From the NCBI RefSeq assembly GCF_024298765.1, contig NZ_CP101210.1: a stretch of 64,000 nt of DNA; one strand, written 5' to 3'. Source of the DNA: Escherichia coli. Its GTDB lineage: Bacteria > Pseudomonadota > Gammaproteobacteria > Enterobacterales > Enterobacteriaceae. How positions within the stretch are numbered: the first letter of the stretch is position 1; each line of letters starts with the position of its first letter. The notes beneath the pieces were generated by a model, which saw only the letters and a list, made by a program, of their open reading frames with translations, was not told the DNA's origin and made no database searches. The position numbers and the translations under genes were made by a program. Positions 7,003-16,993 of this stretch are shown here, piece after piece.

Positions 7003-8397
7003 TCAAAAAAAGTATTTGAAACGTAATCGGGCACCGTAACGATCATCGGTAATGTCACAATTACTATATCTACAGTTACTATCCAGAATTGAGTAATAAG
7101 CCCCGAGGTAAATATTAAAGTTCTCCATATCCATCACATTAGCAAACTGATAAGATGCATGAATGGTGTGAATGTTGTATATTCCTTCACCATCAATCCA
7201 GCAACCATTATTACACACGACACCACTAAATTCATCAATCTTATTATGTGCGTAGATATAACCCAGTTCGAAACGTTTCCACAGAGCATTAATACTGGCA
7301 GTGAAATCTTTCTCATTACTGGCATCCAAATAGGCGGTATTAAGAGTAACCACGATGCCATTTTCCGGATCTGTTTTCAGACCGTTCCATGTCATGCTAA
7401 TACCATAACCGGAACGATTGGACTGATCGACAAAATTCCCCTTATTATCGGTATAGCCATAAGCATTTTTTACCACGTTCGCTTCCATCGCTGCGGAGAC
7501 TGTGAATTCTTCCGTTGGCGACCAGGCAATTACCGGGCGCAGATAAGCGACATTTTTCTGCTGCTCCATATATCGTCCATGATAATTACCGTTATTATAT
7601 AAAGATGTTCCGTCTTCAAGTAACGTGTTTAACTCAAAATACCAGTTATCGAGTTGTTTACTGATGAGGAAATTACCACCAGCGTCAGAACGACCGCGTC
7701 CCTCTTTCATCATATAGATATAACCACGGCCATCAGCATAAATATCATTAGCTGTATTACCGGAATACTCAATGAAAGTATCCTGATTTAGAGGGAACAT
7801 ATCGTAAGCTTCAAAACGACCGACTTTCACTTTCCACTCGTCATCTTTTCCAAAAAAGAATAATGCATCATCAATATTCACTGAACCGTGCATATCCGCC
7901 AGTGGTTGTGCTGAAAATCCAGCGAAATAACCATTATCAAGCTTACGGGTACCGTCAAAACCTAATAGAATACGGCCATTAAGGTCCCACCGTTCATTCA
8001 CTGACTCACTGTTCGCCCCGGAACTTATCATTACTAACTGACCGGGTTTACTGGCAGCATCTATATTAAACTCCACATCACCATAAAACTTCAAATCATT
8101 GTAACCAGAGAGCAGAAAACCTGGAGAAGATGTTTTTTCTTTTGTTGACTCAACTACTGCATAGCTGTTAGCATCTTTTTTATTCTGCTCTGAACTAATT
8201 TGACGTATTTCAGAATGTTGTTCTATATCAAAACTCTTTAACATTCTTTCTGCTTTTTCCGCCCTTTTTTCTGCAGCTTCCAGGCGTTCTTCCAGCAATG
8301 CCATTCTTTGTTCAAGCGTTAGCCCCCCTGTTTTTGCTGCACACGCATTGTATTCCAGTAATAAAAAAAGAGATAAACCCAAAAGTAACTTATTCAT
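7003..8397 (-). CDS. rafY: Outer-membrane glycoporin, RafY-like (raffinose porin)
   Basis: 464-aa ORF with signal peptide, coiled-coil N-terminal extension, C-terminal ...RFKYFF; sits downstream of rafD as in the plasmid raf operon; AT-rich relative to rafABD. Confidence 0.6.
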   Translation of the reverse strand: MNKLLLGLSLFLLLEYNACAAKTGGLTLEQRMALLEERLEAAEKRAEKAERMLKSFDIEQHSEIRQISSEQNKKDANSYAVVESTKEKTSSPGFLLSGYNDLKFYGDVEFNIDAASKPGQLVMISSGANSESVNERWDLNGRILLGFDGTRKLDNGYFAGFSAQPLADMHGSVNIDDALFFFGKDDEWKVKVGRFEAYDMFPLNQDTFIEYSGNTANDIYADGRGYIYMMKEGRGRSDAGGNFLISKQLDNWYFELNTLLEDGTSLYNNGNYHGRYMEQQKNVAYLRPVIAWSPTEEFTVSAAMEANVVKNAYGYTDNKGNFVDQSNRSGYGISMTWNGLKTDPENGIVVTLNTAYLDASNEKDFTASINALWKRFELGYIYAHNKIDEFSGVVCNNGCWIDGEGIYNIHTIHASYQFANVMDMENFNIYLGAYYSILDSNCRYSNCDITDDRYGARLRFKYFF

Positions 8398-8591
8398 TTT
8401 ACCCCCTTAAATAAAAACAAATGTGGGTACTCTTATATTCTCTGTATCAACACAAAATACCATTCATATTCTTCACCAGACTGGTATATATAATCGCAAC
8501 ACATTACCAAAAGCACACAGCAAAGATAATTAATGTGTACTGGCAAAGTAATGACAGATAATGTCAGAAAAAATACTGATATCGATATGTC

Positions 8592-10022
8592 TCAGGTCAG
8601 CATCCATAAAGTGCCATCAGTTAATATCGCATCGCCATGAGCGGCATATAACGATAATTGTCTCGAGTCCGCTTGCGGATAAATACGACTTGATAAGGTT
8701 GCCTCACCATCGTTAACAAACACTTCAACAGATGAACGATCCAAGAAAATACGAAGAGTCAGATATTCTGTATCAGGAAGTTCAACACTGCGGTAACCAT
8801 CCAACCCTTCCTCAGGGTAATAGCGCCACAGTACCAGTCGCCCGGCCTGATTATCCACATAAAGTCGCAGACCGTCTCCAAGGCGGACGCCATAGTGCTC
8901 CGCATGACTGTCAACCGTATGCCACGTCACCAATAATTCTGCGGCCTGTACATTTTCGGTCAGTAATTGCAAACCCTGTAACCTTACAGGGGATAATGGC
9001 TGGCATTTTTTGCGCAGAGATTCGACTTCACGCACAGGTCGCTGGCACAGCCGGCCATCGCGCTCAAAAACCTCTCTGGGCAGCGTCAGACATCCTGCCC
9101 AGGCTTCACTGCGGGTGGGCACGGGTGAATCCCACATATTCATCCATGCCATAATGATACGCCTGCCGTCCTCAGCCAGCATGGACTGTGGAGCATAAAA
9201 GTCATGACCATAATCCAGCTCTTCAAATCCCCCTTTCAGCGCAAAGACAGAACCAGGCTTCCAGCTCCCTGCCAACACACCGCTCTGAAAAAGGTTACGG
9301 AACCGATAACCGGAAGGGGGCATCCCCTGTGGTGAGAACATCAGCCAGTGAAAATTACCACACCTGAAGAAATCGGGGCATTCCCACATATAACTTTTTC
9401 CGGCTGCGGAATGAGCAAGAACATGCTCCAGATGCCAGTCCCGCAAAGATGTCCCGCGATACAACAGAACTTGCCCATTGTCAGAAGCGTCCCGGGCACC
9501 AATGACCATCCACCAGGAGCCGTCTTCGTGCCAGACTTTGGGATCACGGAAATGCATTATACCTTCCGGAGGTGTCAGCACACAGCCCTGCTTCTCAAAG
9601 TGAATACCATCATGACTTGTAGCCAGACACTGTACTTCACGGATAATGCTGTCATTACCACGATCATCGAGACAAATATGACCAGTATAAATAAGTGATA
9701 GCACGCCATCATCATCCACGGCACTCCCTGAAAAACAGCCATCACGATCATATTTATCTCCGGGTGCCAGCGCGATAGGTTCGTGTTGCCAGTGCAACAT
9801 GTCGGTACTGGTGGCATGCCCCCAGTGCATTGGCCCCTGATATGCGCTTGCAGGATGATGCTGGAAGAACGCATGGTAACGCCCATTGAAGTAAATAAGG
9901 CCATTTGGATCATTCATCCAGCCGGCAGGTGGAGCCAGATGAAAAATCGGGTACCAGGCATTACCACGACGTGCGCAAAGTTTTTCAAGGGCAGACTGTG
10001 CCAAAGCAAGACGCTGTTTCAT
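8592..10022 (-). CDS. rafD: Raffinose invertase / sucrose hydrolase (GH32 beta-fructofuranosidase)
   Basis: 476-aa ORF with GH32 motifs WMNDPNGL, FRDP and ECP; start overlaps the rafB stop (TGATG). Confidence 0.85.
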   Translation of the reverse strand: MKQRLALAQSALEKLCARRGNAWYPIFHLAPPAGWMNDPNGLIYFNGRYHAFFQHHPASAYQGPMHWGHATSTDMLHWQHEPIALAPGDKYDRDGCFSGSAVDDDGVLSLIYTGHICLDDRGNDSIIREVQCLATSHDGIHFEKQGCVLTPPEGIMHFRDPKVWHEDGSWWMVIGARDASDNGQVLLYRGTSLRDWHLEHVLAHSAAGKSYMWECPDFFRCGNFHWLMFSPQGMPPSGYRFRNLFQSGVLAGSWKPGSVFALKGGFEELDYGHDFYAPQSMLAEDGRRIIMAWMNMWDSPVPTRSEAWAGCLTLPREVFERDGRLCQRPVREVESLRKKCQPLSPVRLQGLQLLTENVQAAELLVTWHTVDSHAEHYGVRLGDGLRLYVDNQAGRLVLWRYYPEEGLDGYRSVELPDTEYLTLRIFLDRSSVEVFVNDGEATLSSRIYPQADSRQLSLYAAHGDAILTDGTLWMLT

Positions 10023-11299
10023 CAGTTAATCTCCGAATGCGCTGCAGGGGCTTTTTCTACAGAAGGGTGTACGCTCCCGCGGGAAGAACTCAGCGTGAAA
10101 ACTGATATCACGGTAACAGTCAGAGCAATCATCCCGAGCACAAAATACGTATTCTGGAATCCCATACGATCATACAGGTGGCCGGCAAAGGTAGAGAGAA
10201 GTATTGCAGCAAGTTGTTTGGAAAACTGAAAACCTATTAAATAAACGGTCGCTGACAGTCGGGTGTCAAACACTGCCGTAATATATTTGAACGCCCCAAC
10301 CAGCAAAAATGGAACTTCAAGAGCGTGAAGCATTTTCAGAATCACCACTTCTGTCGCGGTGGTGGCAAAAGCAGAACCGGTAATGCGGATGGTCATAATT
10401 CCCCCCGCAACAAGCAGGGTATTTTTGGCACCAATGCGATGAATTATCCATGGTGTACAGAACATGATAATGGCATTACAAATCTCCCCCGCAGTGGTAG
10501 CAAATCCGAATGCTTTTATTCCTGCCTGAGGAGTGTCAAAGAATGAACGAAAAAATGTGGCAAACTGCTGATCAAATACATCATAGACACAGGCCACACC
10601 AATCGTGTAGAGAACAAACATCCACATCTGACGCATGCGAAACAGGCTGAAGACCATTCTGGTCGAAATCAGGGAAGAATTGGCACCCAGTGTATTCATA
10701 ACCATTGCCGTCTGGCTGGTACTGGGGCGCGCCAGAAACAACAGAAGAAGCAACAATAATGCGCTTCCTGACCCCATCCAGAAAACCAGAGAAGGATCGA
10801 CATTAAAAAGCATTCCAGCCATAGCCGCACATAACGCCCAGCCCAGACACCCGAACATCCTCGCTTTACCGTATTCAAATCCACGACTGCGACTGACCCG
10901 CTCTATATAAGCTTCAATAGCTCCGGCACCTGCAGAAAACACAAAACCAATAAAGACACCGCCAGTCAGTGCGCCTGCCCAGATATTGAAGCGCAGCAGG
11001 GGCGCAAATACATATAAAAAAAAGGGGGCGAAAAATACAAGTAACAGGCTGATACTCCAGATCAGGTTTTTTTTCAGTCCCAGGCGATCTGATATGACCC
11101 CAAGCAATGGCTGGAAACTGATGGCAAACAGAGAAAGACATGAAAAGACTATACCTGTATCCGTTTTACTCAGTCCGACCACATCGGACAGCCATACAGG
11201 CAAAAACGGAAAACAGGTTGCCATGATGAAAAAGTAGAGAAAGAAGAACAGACCGAAAATCCAGAAATCGGGATTTTTATGCGTACTTGCAGAATTCAT
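10022..11299 (-). CDS. rafB: Raffinose permease (LacY-family oligosaccharide:H+ symporter)
   Basis: Strong resemblance to LacY along the whole length (NPDFWIFGLFFFLYFFIM…, MFGCLGWALCA…); start set at MNSASTHKNPDFW (425 aa). Confidence 0.85.
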   Translation of the reverse strand: MNSASTHKNPDFWIFGLFFFLYFFIMATCFPFLPVWLSDVVGLSKTDTGIVFSCLSLFAISFQPLLGVISDRLGLKKNLIWSISLLLVFFAPFFLYVFAPLLRFNIWAGALTGGVFIGFVFSAGAGAIEAYIERVSRSRGFEYGKARMFGCLGWALCAAMAGMLFNVDPSLVFWMGSGSALLLLLLLFLARPSTSQTAMVMNTLGANSSLISTRMVFSLFRMRQMWMFVLYTIGVACVYDVFDQQFATFFRSFFDTPQAGIKAFGFATTAGEICNAIIMFCTPWIIHRIGAKNTLLVAGGIMTIRITGSAFATTATEVVILKMLHALEVPFLLVGAFKYITAVFDTRLSATVYLIGFQFSKQLAAILLSTFAGHLYDRMGFQNTYFVLGMIALTVTVISVFTLSSSRGSVHPSVEKAPAAHSEIN

Positions 11300-11361
11300 T
11301 ATTCTTACCCTCACGGGATAATATTGAGAAACAGGACGGAGCTGAGGCTCCGTACCTCTCT

Positions 11362-13488
11362 TCACACAGCTCTTTCAAGTGCTATCAAAATCGCACTCTC
11401 CGGATCCAGTACGGGGAGCTGAATCCCTCCCTGTGCCAGCCATTCACCACTGGCCTCAAGGCTCTGATTCATCCAGACAGGTAATTTGCGCATGGTATGA
11501 CCGCCTTCACCAACCACCTGGAGGTCCGGGTGATCAATAACCCGAAGCCGGTAACGCACTTCCGCCGCCAGACCGGGAAAACGAAGTATGCCTGGTAAGG
11601 TGTAATCCGGCATTGCAAGCTGGCTGATCATAAAAAGTGCCTGAGACTGATCAGGGCTGACGACTCCCTGAACCTGTATCGAAGGATCTGGCATATCCAC
11701 ACGCCAGAGAACTCCTGTATGAATCAGTTGTCGCCATTCTTTATAGAGCAAGGCATACCGGCGATAACCGTCAGATTCCTTCGCATCTGCGGCCACCGGA
11801 TCCAGCTCCAGCCCCATATGGCCGAACAATGCCGTCAGCCCACGAAAAGCGATGCTGTGCTGCCGGAAAGTTGCATGGCAGCGGCGATGGCCAATATGCG
11901 CCCCCATCACCTCAGGAGGGAAAAAGTAACTCATGCCACGTTGTATGGTGCAGCGCTCCAGGGCATCATTATTGTCAGATGCCCAGAACCGGTGTGTGCG
12001 TTTCAGGACTTCGAAGTCAATACGCCCCCCACCGGAAGCACAGGACTCAAACTCAACATGTGGAAAACGTTCACGGAGGAGATCAAGCAATCGATAGAAC
12101 TGACGGGTCTGTGCATCTGCTGCCGCACGGCCTTCATGCCCTGCCTGTACAAGCTCACGATTCATGTCCCATTTCACATAATCAACCGGATGTTCTCCCA
12201 GTAACCATAAGAAACGTTCATAAATGTAAGCAAAGGCCTCTGGAATATTCAGGTTAAGAACATACTGATATCTTCCGGTTGGCTGGGAATATCCAGGCAT
12301 TGACAATACCCAGTCAGGATGAAGACGAAACAGGTCAGAATCCGGGTTAATCATTTCCGGCTCAACCCATATGCCAAATTCCATACCGAGAGATTTCACA
12401 TGTTTAATAACCGGCATCAGCCCGTTCGGGTATTTCTGTTCATCGGTATACCAGTCGCCCAGAGCCGCGCGGTCATCGTTACGTCCTTTAAACCAGCCAT
12501 CATCAATAATGAAACGTTCAACGCCCAGTGCTGCTGCACGCTCAGCCATCTGCATGATGTAATCAGGATTGTGATTGAAATAAATACCTTCCCAGGTATT
12601 GAGATGTACAGGGCGGGGTTTTTGCTCAGGGAAACGGATAATTTCATCACGCAAAAAACGATGGTATTGCTGACTCATTCCATTCAGGCCATCCGCAGAG
12701 TGGCAGGCATATAGCCACGGGGTGTACAGGGTTTCATTCTTCCTGAGAGCCTTCTCACCCGGCATCCACAGAGCCTCAGCCTGAACGTAACGCCTGCCGT
12801 CAGTTTTTGCCTCACATCTCATGCGGTGATTTCCACTCCACCCCAGATGCACAGCCCACACCTCTCCCTGTTGTTCCGAGAAGCCTGGCGTGCCGACAAT
12901 CAGCGCCGGAAAATGCTCATGAGATGTCCGCCCTCTGCGATTTTCCAGAACAAAAGCATCATGAGTGAGACGTACCCTGTGCGGCTGAAATTCACGAGTC
13001 CAGCGTCCGTGAAAAGCCATGACTTCTTCCGCACGTTCCGCTAAAGGTAAAGTGATGGCGAAACGATTTATCTGCCAGTCCCCCTCTCTGAGGTTGGTCA
13101 GTGCATGACGAACTTTCAGAATTCCTGATGGCGTCATCACCAGCTCGCTGACCAGACGCAGGCCGGCTACCGAATCTTCACTGGTAAGTCTCAGAGTGTT
13201 TTCGGTATGTTCCACGTCAACTGTATAAAAAACAGGAGATGCATCCAGCCCATTCCTGTGTCCTTCCAGTCCCGGAGAGCTAAAAAGTCCCAGGGCATTT
13301 TCAGCCATCAGTGTTAGTGGCGTATCAATATCCAGACGACCATTCGCAACCGGTCTTTCCAGGCTGGCACAGTCATCCGGTGAGAAATGTTTCAGTGCAG
13401 AGCCCCACCAGATAATTTCTGCATGTGGACGGGTTTTAATAATTAAATCAGAGCGAGGACTGCTCAGTCTGCAGTACTTTGAAACCAT
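11362..13488 (-). CDS. rafA: Alpha-galactosidase (GH36)
   Basis: 708-aa ORF; GH36-like; position between rafR and rafB. Confidence 0.85.
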   Translation of the reverse strand: MVSKYCRLSSPRSDLIIKTRPHAEIIWWGSALKHFSPDDCASLERPVANGRLDIDTPLTLMAENALGLFSSPGLEGHRNGLDASPVFYTVDVEHTENTLRLTSEDSVAGLRLVSELVMTPSGILKVRHALTNLREGDWQINRFAITLPLAERAEEVMAFHGRWTREFQPHRVRLTHDAFVLENRRGRTSHEHFPALIVGTPGFSEQQGEVWAVHLGWSGNHRMRCEAKTDGRRYVQAEALWMPGEKALRKNETLYTPWLYACHSADGLNGMSQQYHRFLRDEIIRFPEQKPRPVHLNTWEGIYFNHNPDYIMQMAERAAALGVERFIIDDGWFKGRNDDRAALGDWYTDEQKYPNGLMPVIKHVKSLGMEFGIWVEPEMINPDSDLFRLHPDWVLSMPGYSQPTGRYQYVLNLNIPEAFAYIYERFLWLLGEHPVDYVKWDMNRELVQAGHEGRAAADAQTRQFYRLLDLLRERFPHVEFESCASGGGRIDFEVLKRTHRFWASDNNDALERCTIQRGMSYFFPPEVMGAHIGHRRCHATFRQHSIAFRGLTALFGHMGLELDPVAADAKESDGYRRYALLYKEWRQLIHTGVLWRVDMPDPSIQVQGVVSPDQSQALFMISQLAMPDYTLPGILRFPGLAAEVRYRLRVIDHPDLQVVGEGGHTMRKLPVWMNQSLEASGEWLAQGGIQLPVLDPESAILIALERAV

Positions 13489-13526
13489 AAGACATTCTCC
13501 TTTCTCAGGGATGCCTTACTGTTGAT

Positions 13527-13561
13527 CCGAAACGTTTCGGGTATCAACCAAAACGTTTCGG
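13527..13561 (-). promoter_or_regulatory. Two palindromic operator-like sites (CCGAAACGTTTCGG at 13527..13540 and CCAAAACGTTTCGG at 13548..13561) in the rafA promoter region; candidate RafR operators
   Basis: Perfect and near-perfect 14-bp palindromes 21 bp apart centre to centre, 40–73 bp upstream of the rafA start, adjacent to the LacI-family repressor gene. Confidence 0.55.
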
Positions 13562-13583
13562 ATATGTGAGCTGGATAAAAAAA

Positions 13584-14594
13584 TCAGGAGCAAGGAGGAT
13601 GAATCGTCTTTCCCGGATAAAATACCGGGTTCCAGACAACCTGTAGTGGTTTTGATGATGAATCAGTAATTATCTGATATATCATCTCGGAAATCTGGCG
13701 ACCAACGAGGCTTCGTGTTGACTGAATAACTGCAGCCACATCCAGCTCAATAATACTGTCCTGTGGCAAACCATCATATACAACCAGAGATACCGCATCT
13801 TTTCCTGAAAGACGACCGCTCAACTGCAGTGCCATGGCAGCACCATCTCCACTCAGGTCATTGTCAGTAATAATAGCTGTTGGTGGTATCGGTAGTGACA
13901 TTAACTCCATCACGGCCTGATATCCTGCTCGCCGTGTGGGAGAAACCAGCCGCAGCCATGTATCTTCCAGTTCATGCTCATTCAGTGCATCAAGCCATCC
14001 CTGACGTCTTGCAACAACATAGCTATGTGAAGTGTCTTCACTCAACAATGCAATACGTTTATGTCCCAAAGCAATCAGTTTCTGGGTTGCCTGTCCAGTC
14101 CCGGCATGATTATCAAAGTCAAACCACGCACAGGGCAGACCAGATGGTACCCGACCAAGAGCCAGAAATGGAATACCTGCTTTATGAAGGTGTGTGATAC
14201 GGGGATCGTCATCCAGAGTGTGTGCAATGATGAGAGCATCAACCCTGCGACTTTCAACAAGCCGCATATAGCTGTGGCAATCGGCATGCTCATCATCAGC
14301 TATCAGTAGTAAGTCAATATCATGGTGAGCAAGTTCCCGGCTGATGCAACTGACCATATCCATAAAAACACCACTGTTAAATGGCACATCACGTCCAGGA
14401 TAAACCAGACCGACAGCATCGGTTTTACCGGTTTTGAGTCTTCTTGCCTGAGTATTAGGACGGTAACCGCGTCGACGAGCTTCAGCTTCCACCCGTGCAC
14501 GGGTGGAAGCTGACACATCTGCATAGCCTCCAAGAGCCCGACTGACAGTGGTGACAGAAACTCCGAGTGCAGTGGCAATCGCCTTAAGTGACAT
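13584..14594 (-). CDS. rafR: LacI-family transcriptional repressor of the raf operon
   Basis: 336-aa ORF; N-terminal HTH (LKAIATALGVSVTTVSRAL); periplasmic-binding-protein-like sugar-binding core. Confidence 0.8.
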   Translation of the reverse strand: MSLKAIATALGVSVTTVSRALGGYADVSASTRARVEAEARRRGYRPNTQARRLKTGKTDAVGLVYPGRDVPFNSGVFMDMVSCISRELAHHDIDLLLIADDEHADCHSYMRLVESRRVDALIIAHTLDDDPRITHLHKAGIPFLALGRVPSGLPCAWFDFDNHAGTGQATQKLIALGHKRIALLSEDTSHSYVVARRQGWLDALNEHELEDTWLRLVSPTRRAGYQAVMELMSLPIPPTAIITDNDLSGDGAAMALQLSGRLSGKDAVSLVVYDGLPQDSIIELDVAAVIQSTRSLVGRQISEMIYQIITDSSSKPLQVVWNPVFYPGKTIHPPCS

Positions 14595-14617
14595 ATTATC
14601 TCCTGCTAATTATTATA

Positions 14618-14660
14618 GTAGACCGTCCCCCTAAATCTCCAGACAACCAATATCACTTAT
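14618..14660 (+). mobile_element. IS2 left-end remnant (~42 bp, about 38/42 identical to the IS2 left IR as recalled), 24 bp upstream of the rafR start
   Basis: TAGACCGTCCCCCTAAATCTCCAGACAACCAATATCACTTAT versus recalled TAGACTGGCCCCCTGAATCTCCAGACAACCAATATCACTTAA. Confidence 0.5.
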
Positions 14661-14676
14661 TGTAAGTTAACGGAAT

Positions 14677-14701
14677 CCCTCTGATCTGTAAGATCAGAGG
14701 G
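14677..14701. other. Perfect hairpin/palindrome CCCTCTGATC-TGTAA-GATCAGAGGG downstream of the integrase stop
   Basis: 10-bp perfect stem, 5-nt loop; no flanking U-tract on either strand. Confidence 0.5.
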
Positions 14702-14743
14702 AAAGGTTATTGATTGTGAGAATAATTTCAGGACAAAGTGTAA

Positions 14744-15928
14744 TTAACTCTCCTGGATGGAAAGTGAATCAATGTAGTCAGCGTACCATTGCATCATTTC
14801 ACGGCGACCATCGAGATACAGGGCATGATTATAGGTACCCCTGATGGAATTTTTATCCACATGAGCTAACTGCATTTCAATCCAGGCAGAATTAAAGCCC
14901 TGTTCGTGCAGAATGGTACTCATGGTGTGACGAAAACCATGACCGGTTGCCCTGCCATCGTAACCGATACGTTTGAGCACCATATTGATGCTGGCTTCGC
15001 TCATTGGCTTGTTGATATCACAACGTCCCGGGAAAACCAGCCGGTATTGTCCGGAGAAAGTTTTGAGCTGCAGCAGAATGTCAGTGGCCTGTCGTGACAG
15101 TGGTACGACATGTTTACGTCGCATTTTCATGCGGCTTTCAGGGATTGTCCACAGGGCATTATCAAAATCAATTTCTGACCATTCAGCGGACCGTAGTTCA
15201 ATCGTTCTGAGGCCTGTCAGAAGCAGCAGATTTGTCGCCATGCGGGTAACAGGACTGCCATGATATTCAGCGAGCTTCCGGAGAAAAACAGGGAGCTCAT
15301 CTGCTCTCAGGTGGGGGAAATGTGCAGCTTTTGGCGCCGCCAGCGTACTGGTCAGTTCAGATGCCGGATTGACAGTGGCTCGTCCGGTGGCGATGGCATA
15401 ACGAAAAATCTGATTACAGTATTGACGCACCTTACGAAGTTTTTCCAGCGAGCCACGTTTTTCTATGCGGCGCAGAATTTCCAGCATTTCCAGCGGGAGG
15501 ATATCAGTAACGCTTCGTTTGCCCAGATACGGGAAAATATCTTTATCCAGAGCCTCCAGTACGCTTCTGGCGTAACTTTCAGACCATGACAAAGATTTAT
15601 GCTGATGCCATTCCGTAGCAAGGGCATGGAACGTATTGGTGGCAGAGATTTTCTGAGTGAGTTTTTCCTTTCGCTTCTTTTCGCCCGGGTCGCCACCTTC
15701 GGAGATAATTTTTCGGGCATCGTCGCGTTTGATTCTGGCTTCAGCAAGGGAGACGTCGGGATAGACGCCGAGGGCCAGTTTTTTCTCTTTTCCTGCTATC
15801 CGGTATTTAAGCCGCCAGTAGCGGGCACCCGTGGTTTTTACCAGCAGATATAAACCACGTTCGTCAGAGAGTTTATAGTCTTTTTCTTTAGGTCTGGCTG
15901 TTTCGACCTGTCTGGCTGTAAGTGCCAT
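14744..15928 (-). CDS. int: Tyrosine recombinase, P4-type phage/island integrase
   Basis: N-terminal MALTARQVETARPKEKDYKLSD…GLYLLV typical of P4-family integrases; C-terminal catalytic region; immediately adjacent to tRNA-Phe; ORF track start at 15958 probably too early. Confidence 0.85.
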   Translation of the reverse strand: MALTARQVETARPKEKDYKLSDERGLYLLVKTTGARYWRLKYRIAGKEKKLALGVYPDVSLAEARIKRDDARKIISEGGDPGEKKRKEKLTQKISATNTFHALATEWHQHKSLSWSESYARSVLEALDKDIFPYLGKRSVTDILPLEMLEILRRIEKRGSLEKLRKVRQYCNQIFRYAIATGRATVNPASELTSTLAAPKAAHFPHLRADELPVFLRKLAEYHGSPVTRMATNLLLLTGLRTIELRSAEWSEIDFDNALWTIPESRMKMRRKHVVPLSRQATDILLQLKTFSGQYRLVFPGRCDINKPMSEASINMVLKRIGYDGRATGHGFRHTMSTILHEQGFNSAWIEMQLAHVDKNSIRGTYNHALYLDGRREMMQWYADYIDSLSIQES

Positions 15929-16000
15929 ATGGGGGCTCCTGAAACTGACTGAACACAATGAGCCCCCACCGGTGCCCCCAATGAACGCTTGATTGAGAGA

Positions 16001-16085
16001 GAGTTCAGTAGAGTTCGGTGGAGTTCAGGATGTTCAGATTGCTTGTAACGATGTGATTATACTTGAGTTTCGTGGAGTTCGGGAG
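16001..16085. repeat. Cluster of GAGTTC(A/G)G direct repeats between integrase and tRNA (candidate arm-type recombinase binding sites)
   Basis: Three tandem 10-bp-spaced copies at 16001, 16011, 16021, plus variants at ~16032, 16065, 16075. Confidence 0.35.
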
Positions 16086-16104
16086 ATGAATCTGGAAGTG
16101 AAAG

Positions 16105-16180
16105 TGGTGCCCGGACTCGGAATCGAACCAAGGACACGGGGATTTTCAATCCCCTGCTCTACCGACTGAGCTATCCGGGC
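16105..16180 (-). tRNA. pheV: tRNA-Phe (anticodon GAA)
   Basis: Reverse complement reads GCCCGGATAGCTCAGTCGGTAGAGCAGGGGATTGAAAATCCCCGTGTCCTTGGTTCGATTCCGAGTCCGGGCACCA, 76 nt with CCA end; pheV assignment from flanking yqgA/speC. Confidence 0.95.
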
Positions 16181-16285
16181 AACGGGGCGCATTAAACCTG
16201 ATTCGCCTCGTCTCGTCAATCAAATTTCTTCAATTTACTGCAGACTGCACAATCTATCATCACTTTGCCGCTATTGCACGCATTG

Positions 16286-16993
16286 TCAGGCAAACCAGGC
16301 GGTCCAGGCGGCGGAAAGCGGCATTGCCAGAAGGAGTGCTGGAAGCATGTTGACCACCGGGAACATTTTAATGCCACAGATGCGTAATCCGGTTGCCAGC
16401 AGCAATAAACCGCCTACGGCGCTGAAGTCTGCCATCATCGACGGTGTGGTCAGCGGTAATATCAGCGCGGCAGCCCACGCCAGCGTTAACTGGATGATCA
16501 GTAATGGGATACTAATTACCGACACCGCAATACCCAACGAGCAGGCGAAGATCATCGCCGTAAAGAAATCGAGAAATGACTTGGCGATTAAAATACTCGG
16601 ATCGCCGGTCATCCCTTCGTTCATCGCCCCGAAGATCCCGGTGCCGCTGGCGCAAAACAGGACAATAATCGCGACATAATTCTGAATAAAAGATTCATGC
16701 GCTGGCTTCTTACGTGAGTGGCGAAACAGATTTTGTGCTTTGGTGACCGCGGTATTGACGCCTTTTTCCAGCAGACAAATTTCGCCGATTAATGCACCGA
16801 GTAAGGTTGCTAAAACCATCGCCGGAAGGTTGGCGCATTTCACCACCAGTAAAATACCAATCCCCAGCGATGCCAGACCAAAAATAGATGTCATGGAGAC
16901 GCGGATACGTTCCGGTAAACGTTGGCTGAGCAGTGCGCCGAGAACGCCACCCAGTAAGACTGCACTAGCGTTGATAAAAGGGCCGATGACCAC
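16286..16993 (-). CDS. yqgA: Putative transporter YqgA (DUF554 family inner-membrane protein)
   Basis: 235-aa multi-TM ORF recognised as YqgA; synteny next to pheV and speC. Confidence 0.8.
   Translation of the reverse strand: MVIGPFINASAVLLGGVLGALLSQRLPERIRVSMTSIFGLASLGIGILLVVKCANLPAMVLATLLGALIGEICLLEKGVNTAVTKAQNLFRHSRKKPAHESFIQNYVAIIVLFCASGTGIFGAMNEGMTGDPSILIAKSFLDFFTAMIFACSLGIAVSVISIPLLIIQLTLAWAAALILPLTTPSMMADFSAVGGLLLLATGLRICGIKMFPVVNMLPALLLAMPLSAAWTAWFA

Follow-up and report, generated by a model that had tools for sequence, protein, structure and literature searches.

The tandem repeats that separate a P4-family integrase gene from the tRNA gene pheV in the window, the 64,000-nucleotide stretch of Escherichia coli DNA analysed here, are probably binding sites for an excisionase (RDF) of the AlpA/TorI type, arrayed on the int-proximal (P') arm of the attL of a genomic island. 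Two lines of sequence comparison favor this reading over one in which the repeats are bound by the integrase: the repeats align with the sites mapped for TorI in the prophage KplE1, and their motif does not occur on the far arm of an island that is nearly identical. The array is an ordinary feature of a known kind, and no new kind of system is involved.

The locus is attL of an island at pheV

ARAGORN places a tRNA-Phe (GAA) gene on the minus strand at 16105-16180, where the Rfam tRNA model scores 68 bits, and since yqgA and speC flank it, the gene is pheV. Integration targets its 3′ end, and the 19-bp attL core, TGGTGCCCGGACTCGGAAT, occupies 16105-16123. The integrase gene, also on the minus strand (14744-15928), encodes a P4-family tyrosine integrase of 394 aa (RefSeq WP_001218742.1) in which Pfam recognizes Arm-DNA-bind_3 (PF13356, residues 3-88, E=8.7e-27), Phage_int_M and Phage_integrase. 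The protein is ∼46% identical to IntS of HK620/Sf6. Island DNA takes up positions 1-16104, with a cargo that includes the raf operon and a phosphoethanolamine transferase among other genes.

A second copy of the tRNA 3′-end repeat was not found within the window. Strain W2-5, which differs from window positions 1-16536 at 5 bases, carries a near-identical island of ∼70 kb (NZ_CP032989.1, 856000-917500; our loci L086 and L087). There an identical 16-bp match to the core repeat lies ∼69 kb away (L087, 7834-7849), and reading the W2-5 sequence extends it to the full 19 bp (7834-7852), at which the island ends. Past 16536 the chromosome backbones of the two diverge, and the window therefore derives from a strain other than W2-5. 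With a P4-type integrase and a tRNA 3′ end that is repeated distally in the W2-5 island, the locus is the attL of a P4-family tRNA-integrating island. The int-tRNA spacer is not peculiar to this strain, as a 211-bp region comprising it occurs, at pheV or pheU, in ∼10% of complete E. coli genomes (531 of 5426).

Two blocks of phased GAGTTCRG units

An earlier note on this DNA had described tandem GAGTTC(A/G)G repeats at 16001, 16011 and 16021, in a 10-bp period and accompanied by degenerate copies, between the integrase gene and the tRNA gene. Both the repeats and their placement are borne out by the sequence: the spacer measures 176 bp, and Tandem Repeats Finder reports a period of 10 with 2.9 copies over 16000-16028. 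Read directly, 16000-16085 runs aGAGTTCAGTaGAGTTCGGTgGAGTTCAGGATGTTCAG...GAGTTTCGTgGAGTTCGGGAG. Exact GAGTTCRG begins on the plus strand at 16001, 16011, 16021 and 16075; one degenerate copy, ATGTTCAG, follows at 16030, 9 bp past the third exact copy, and another, GAGTTTCG, at 16065, 10 bp ahead of the fourth.

On the int (minus) strand the units fall into two blocks, both of which we propose as RDF sites. The core-proximal block (16065-16100) comprises four 10-bp-phased units, CACTTC (16095-16100), ATTCATC (16085-16091), CCGAACTC and CGAAACTC, the last two being the plus-strand copies GAGTTCGG (16075) and GAGTTTCG (16065). CACTTC and ATTCATC are weaker, keep the same 10-bp phase and lie outside the stretch that had been described before. 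The core-distal block (16001-16037) holds the three tandem copies, and its units on the int strand are CTGAACAT (16030-16037), which is one base out of phase, CTGAACTC (16021-16028), CCGAACTC (16011-16018) and CTGAACTC again (16001-16008).

Exact GAGTTCRG is found nine times on the two strands of the 64-kb window against 2.79 expected, and four of the nine matches fall inside 82 bp on a single strand. When clusters of at least three copies per 60 bp, with one mismatch allowed, were sought over ∼125 kb (the window plus the 61 kb that make up the remainder of the near-identical W2-5 island), the int-pheV spacer was the only place to contain one; elsewhere in the island, including the region upstream of its alpA-like gene, no GAGTTC-type array is present. 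The lag-10 autocorrelation of the window spacer is significant as well (z=3.1, p=0.004 against dinucleotide shuffles).

The layout is shared across the P4 family

Comparison with homologous islands, proposed earlier as a check, found the repeats present in them and revealed a common plan. We fetched 80 loci whose integrases are 43-80% identical to that of the window; most of them lie 165-180 bp downstream of a tRNA gene, for Phe, Asn, Arg, SeC, Thr, Ser, Gly, Leu or Ala. On the int strand, the tRNA end is followed by three to four 10-bp units, an A/T box and three to four more units (together class A), and then by class B, which consists of two direct repeats 12 bp apart and an inverted copy immediately next to the int ATG. 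Averaged across 62 tRNA-to-integrase spacers, the lag-10 autocorrelation of the first 115 nt is 0.42 and that at lag 20 is 0.34, compared with a background of ∼0.26, and 54 of the 62, those of P4 and HK620/KplE1 included, are individually significant (p<0.01 against dinucleotide shuffles). This recurrence, together with the finding of a sole cluster in ∼125 kb, means that the array is not a product of chance.

The register is measured from the tRNA end. Across the 62 spacers TC is fixed at +9/10, +19/20 and +29/30 and CC at +39/40, and 47 spacers, again with P4 and HK620, align in one frame in which an A/T-rich box at +44-47 is kept across the family. The motifs of both classes vary by lineage, class A units taking forms such as GTCCATA, ACGAT, CATTACC, GTAACC and GTTCG, with position and spacing kept; such variation at constant position and spacing argues for specific binding proteins. 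The two classes are distributed differently over the arms: in five contiguous phage attP sites (P4, HK620, RCIP0114, phiEt88 and AchV4), class B occurs on both arms and class A on the int-proximal arm only.

Positional counterparts of mapped TorI sites

The attL of KplE1 provides a map against which the array can be read. Panis et al. (2010, Virology 404:41; PMC2951348) located five mutationally defined TorI sites there, with motifs GTTCG, GTCCG and GATCG, separate from the arm-type sites. Two of the five, spaced by 12 nt, form one block, and the other three, spaced by 2 nt, form another; mutation of I4 or I5 abolishes the repression of intS by TorI. We placed these sites on HK620 by their published coordinates and carried them through the 47-spacer alignment, in which they correspond column for column with the units of the window. 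I1 and I2 align to 16093-16097 and 16073-16077, and I3, I4 and I5, which are 8-bp sites with a 10-bp period, align to 16019-16023, 16009-16013 and 15999-16003; the three tandem GAGTTCRG copies are thus the positional counterparts of I3-I5. The two systems also agree in that the sites lie between core and arm-type sites on the int-proximal arm, form two blocks of which the distal one contains three adjacent sites at a 10-bp period, and flank or overlap the promoter of int, in the window a putative one. Features by which an RDF array can be recognized, namely direct repeats at intervals of about one helical turn, a location between core and arm-type sites and equivalence to mapped TorI sites, are all found here.

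The orientation of the window units relative to TorI-type boxes is ambiguous as judged from sequence. In KplE1 the motif on the int strand is CAGTTCG or CAGTCCG, whereas in the window that strand reads C(C/T)GAACTC and the literal GAGTTCG is on the opposite strand. Alignment on the same strand depends chiefly on the conserved TC and on a series of intermediates, AAGTCC in P4, GAAGTC in selC-type spacers and GAACTC in the window. The best literal TorI-type match comes from the attP of the Klebsiella phage RCIP0114 (L090, 380-710), whose excisionase-type boxes on the int strand are GAGTTCGC/TAGTTCGC: GAGTTCGC is nearly the same 8-mer as GAGTTCGG of the window, with its orientation relative to int reversed, a resemblance that may be coincidence or may reflect an inverted array.

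A candidate protein is available within the island group. No RDF gene lies in the 16 kb of island contained in the window; the near-identical island of W2-5 has an AlpA-family gene ∼35 kb from int. Its product, of the WP_000958154.1 type, belongs, like P4 Vis, to PF05930 and is 24% identical to TorI. Homology is detectable among TorI, Vis and AlpA-like proteins, and genes of the AlpA/TorI-like kind are located at most 2.5 kb from int in 18 relative loci from GTDB.

GGGGGC repeats as probable integrase arm-type sites

A different repeat occupies the int-proximal end of the spacer. A direct pair of GGGGGC repeats, TTGGGGGCACCG and GTGGGGGCTCAT, lies on the minus strand at 15958-15981 with a period of 12 bp (cores at 15974-15979 and 15962-15967), and an inverted copy, GAGCCCCC, at 15929-15940 (GCCCCC core at 15931-15936) overlaps the Shine-Dalgarno sequence AGGAG and abuts the int ATG. 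In motif, spacing and position these repeats equal the annotated 'attP arm sequence repeats' of P4 (NC_001609), which are of the TTGGGGGCATAA type and comprise a direct pair, an inverted copy where int starts and two further copies on the other arm, past the core. The arm-type sites of IntS in KplE1/HK620, GGGTAAAA with a conserved TAAA, have a P4-like layout on both arms, and in the spacer alignment the P4 and KplE1 sites coincide with GGGGGC and not with GAGTTCRG. We find the same for GGGGGC in the W2-5 island, the far arm of which carries a doublet, GGGGGCCTCATT GGTGGCCTCAAA, ∼85 bp from the core; this block is invariant in variants that are 86-100% identical, with the DNA between block and core varying. 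No GAGTTCRG/CYGAACTC cluster is present on that far arm.

Class B recurs in the wider family. When defined as an exact 6-mer whose reverse complement adjoins the ATG and which itself occurs two or more times upstream, the pattern is seen in 34 of 62 spacers and in 6 of 3100 shuffles, and in 29 of the 34 the direct copies are 12 bp apart. On these comparisons the GGGGGC repeats at ∼15929-15981, with the inverted copy as a proposed third site, are probably the true integrase arm-type sites. The complementarity of GGGGGCTC and GAGCCCCC over the int ribosome-binding site was also considered as an RNA hairpin, and its stability relative to shuffles was not significant (z=-1.86).

Covariation of the two repeats with the two proteins separates them in part. 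No pair has more similar Int N-domains than P4 and the window (51% identical over the N-terminal 95 residues), and both have GGGGGC, whereas their phased units and their RDFs (25% identical) differ. P4 and AchV4, in contrast, share the phased motif (CTTCC/AGTCC/CATCC) and differ in their arm repeats, and of the RDFs compared that of AchV4 comes closest to P4 Vis (40%). These pairwise contrasts suggest that the phased motif tracks the RDF. Mantel tests on 15 elements, a small and phylogenetically non-independent sample, gave for the arm repeat a partial r of 0.56 (p 0.0004) with the Int N-domain and of -0.04 with the RDF, and for the phased repeat a partial r of 0.35 (p 0.0008) with the RDF when Int was controlled and of 0.38 (p 0.002) with the Int N-domain when the RDF was controlled. 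By these tests the arm repeat goes with the Int N-domain rather than with the RDF; the phased repeat is associated about as well with one protein as with the other, and for it the tests do not discriminate.

The correlation of the phased repeat with the Int N-domain is a point for the view that the GAGTTCRG units are themselves arm-type sites, on which the integrase would dock through its N-terminal Arm DNA-binding domain in the way that lambda Int binds P'1-P'3. The lambda sites are three adjacent direct repeats on the int-proximal arm, and the three tandem copies in the window, at their 10-bp period, resemble them; the Arm-DNA-bind_3 domain is present in the integrase as well. Even so, we think it unlikely that the units serve this purpose. 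The annotated or mapped arm-type sites of P4 and KplE1/HK620 are the other repeat, the window has GGGGGC in the matching place and at the matching spacing, it is GGGGGC and not GAGTTCRG that recurs on the far arm, and it is again GGGGGC and not the phased motif that P4 and the window have in common. The role of P'1-P'3 in the P4 family is filled by the GGGGGC-type repeat. The earlier note had left the choice between integrase and excisionase sites open, placing them on the same face of the DNA. Its general idea, of att-arm sites for a DNA-binding protein phased on one face, agrees with the sequence comparisons; of its two options the excisionase is favored by the TorI alignment, and the integrase is disfavored by the identity of the arm-type sites in P4 and KplE1/HK620.

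The A/T box and the int promoter

Between the two blocks lies an A/T box on the minus strand (16046-16061), in which a perfect TATAAT (16056-16061) overlaps AATCACATCGTTA (16046-16058), a sequence that resembles the IHF consensus WATCARNNNNTTR. From its sequence, the box may be the -10 element of int, an IHF bend site, or both. IHF sites are reported in the int promoter regions of P4 and PAI I536, and in PAI I536 IntI represses its own synthesis and IHF binds the promoter region (PMC7286903). The core-distal block ends in AATCAAG (minus strand, 15988-15994), which is conserved in the alignment of 47 spacers; many relatives have a -35-like TTGAMA at this position, and in HK620 the mapped -35, TTGACA, is located there. 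A scan of 15850-16300 for promoters and terminators found no consensus promoter, no full -35/-10 pair and no terminator, and an Rfam search of 15700-16400 returned the tRNA alone.

Promoter elements differ among the groups of the family. The KplE1 promoter, TTGACA-N17-TAAAAA, lies downstream of the array, whereas the pheV group is without it and has TATAAT between the blocks together with 11 additional bp. This 11-bp insertion, between A/T box and core-distal block, is seen in the tRNA-Phe/Asn/Arg(CCT) group (L006-L021); as it amounts to one helical turn, phase is preserved. The same group does not have the promoter-like pair TTGAMA...CATAAT of the P4, Thr and selC groups.

Could the units be no more than the operator and promoter architecture of int, through which the RDF, Int or a host protein keeps int off, without a direct role in recombination? 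In KplE1, TorI and IntS both repress intS through sites that overlap its promoter (PMC2951348), and a perfect TATAAT between the blocks, like the autorepression of IntI in PAI I536, would suit such an arrangement. Against it stand the promoter scan, which shows no complete sigma-70 promoter, and the register of the units, which is locked to the tRNA end, and with it to the core, while promoter-like elements shift between lineages. An operator function moreover overlaps the excisionase reading and does not exclude it. Taken on its own terms we judge this explanation quite improbable. Least credible is an array that reflects sequence-directed DNA curvature, or tandem duplication by slippage, and that no protein specifically binds. 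Curvature could arise from AA and TC dinucleotides in a 10-bp phase, and duplication would leave copies adjacent, as the three are, but the unit motif varies by lineage with phase and position kept, as specific recognition would have it, the array is conserved across genera and, within E. coli, in hundreds of genomes, and spacer variants that are 94-95% identical alter the units and keep the TC.

A model for excision and its relation to known systems

For an array of excisionase sites, a mechanism can be proposed by homology, both as to which protein binds and as to what follows from binding. Small winged-helix RDF monomers of the AlpA/Vis/TorI type would bind the phased repeats cooperatively along one face of the helix and so bend the int-proximal arm. 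Int, anchored through its N-domains to the GGGGGC arm-type sites, could thereby contact the core at the end of the tRNA gene and carry out excision by recombination of attL with attR. Occupancy of the array might also repress int, as TorI does in KplE1: because the only good -10 sits between its blocks and the array as a whole precedes the int start, its occupancy should lower int expression, in line with KplE1, P4 and PAI I536 (PMC2951348, PMC7286903).

P4 attP shares with the window its integrase family, its GGGGGC arm repeat and its layout, including 10-bp-phased units between core and arm repeats, which in P4 are CTTCC, CATCC, AGTCC and, later, GTCC. It differs in its target, the tRNA-Leu gene leuX, in its phased motif, nTCC, and in having a -35/-10 pair (TTGAAA...CATAAT) that overlaps the arm repeats; the P4 record leaves the phased units unannotated. 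Binding of P4 Vis to attP, by EMSA and footprinting, is cited in PMC2603039. The late-promoter region of P4, checked for Vis-type 10-bp repeats, contains GGACGGAC only and is uninformative.

Beyond the P4 family, the X1-X1.5-X2 sites of lambda Xis, the Cox boxes of P2 and the Apl sites of 186 are like the window array in being direct repeats about one helical turn apart, although the proteins that bind them are unrelated, or only distantly related, to the candidate considered here. The Xis sites of lambda lie on the arm distal to int. RDF operators as a class consist of direct repeats spaced by one helical turn; arrays such as these three are bound cooperatively, with bending of the DNA, and often double as transcriptional operators (PMC7498355). 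The RDF of ROD21 binds both attL and attR, and exclusivity to one arm is therefore not universal (PMC8844411).

Implications for the P4 family

Roles can now be proposed for the elements along the 176 bp between pheV and int, namely the core, the excisionase array, a bend or -10 box and the integrase arm-type sites. The layout has been mapped experimentally in KplE1 and P4 only, and our comparisons extend it across the P4 family. For pheV integrases, our literature search found no report of arm-type sites, and the literature on pheV RDFs and VefA that we consulted holds no nucleotide-level maps for this island group. Islands that bear such spacers often carry resistance or virulence cargo, and the elements described here offer precise targets for studying how islands are retained in, or released from, the chromosome.

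A broader generalization, which we offer tentatively and with more doubt than conviction, is that a phased array with its register locked to the tRNA end is near-universal in P4-family att sites and permits RDF cross-talk between islands. The unit GAAnTC is common to islands at pheV/pheU, selC, thrW, argU-type and serine tRNA sites. If the generalization is true, the excisionase of one island could act on the att sites of co-resident islands, and RDF specificity would be readable from spacer sequence alone. As a variant of the same idea, the pheV group may have TorI-like GAGTTCG boxes that are inverted with respect to those of the HK620 group.

Further observations on related islands

The W2-5 island carries sul2, aph(3'')-Ib, aph(6)-Id, tet(A) and floR beside the raf operon. 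Directly after its 19-bp tRNA-end repeat a second integrase island begins in tandem, the spacer of which contains one copy of GAGTTCGG. The far end of the W2-5 island (L087, 7834-7990) is present in 1113 of the 5426 E. coli genomes, about twice the 531 that have the window spacer, and the far arm is thus common to islands with other int-proximal ends.

Spacers in a set of selC-linked loci (L024-L030, L036, L040 and L082) are ∼300 nt long. The standard module ends there in ...GCACCCCCATAATG at ∼165 nt and is separated from the start of the integrase match by ∼135 nt that contain a second pair of GGGGT repeats, which could reflect either a duplicated module or a mis-set start. Finally, a 78%-identical spacer in E. 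coli DG341-1 (NZ_CM144243.1, 762070-765278; L002) accompanies a related integrase gene located beside ynjA, with no tRNA gene, and may represent integration at a secondary, non-tRNA site.
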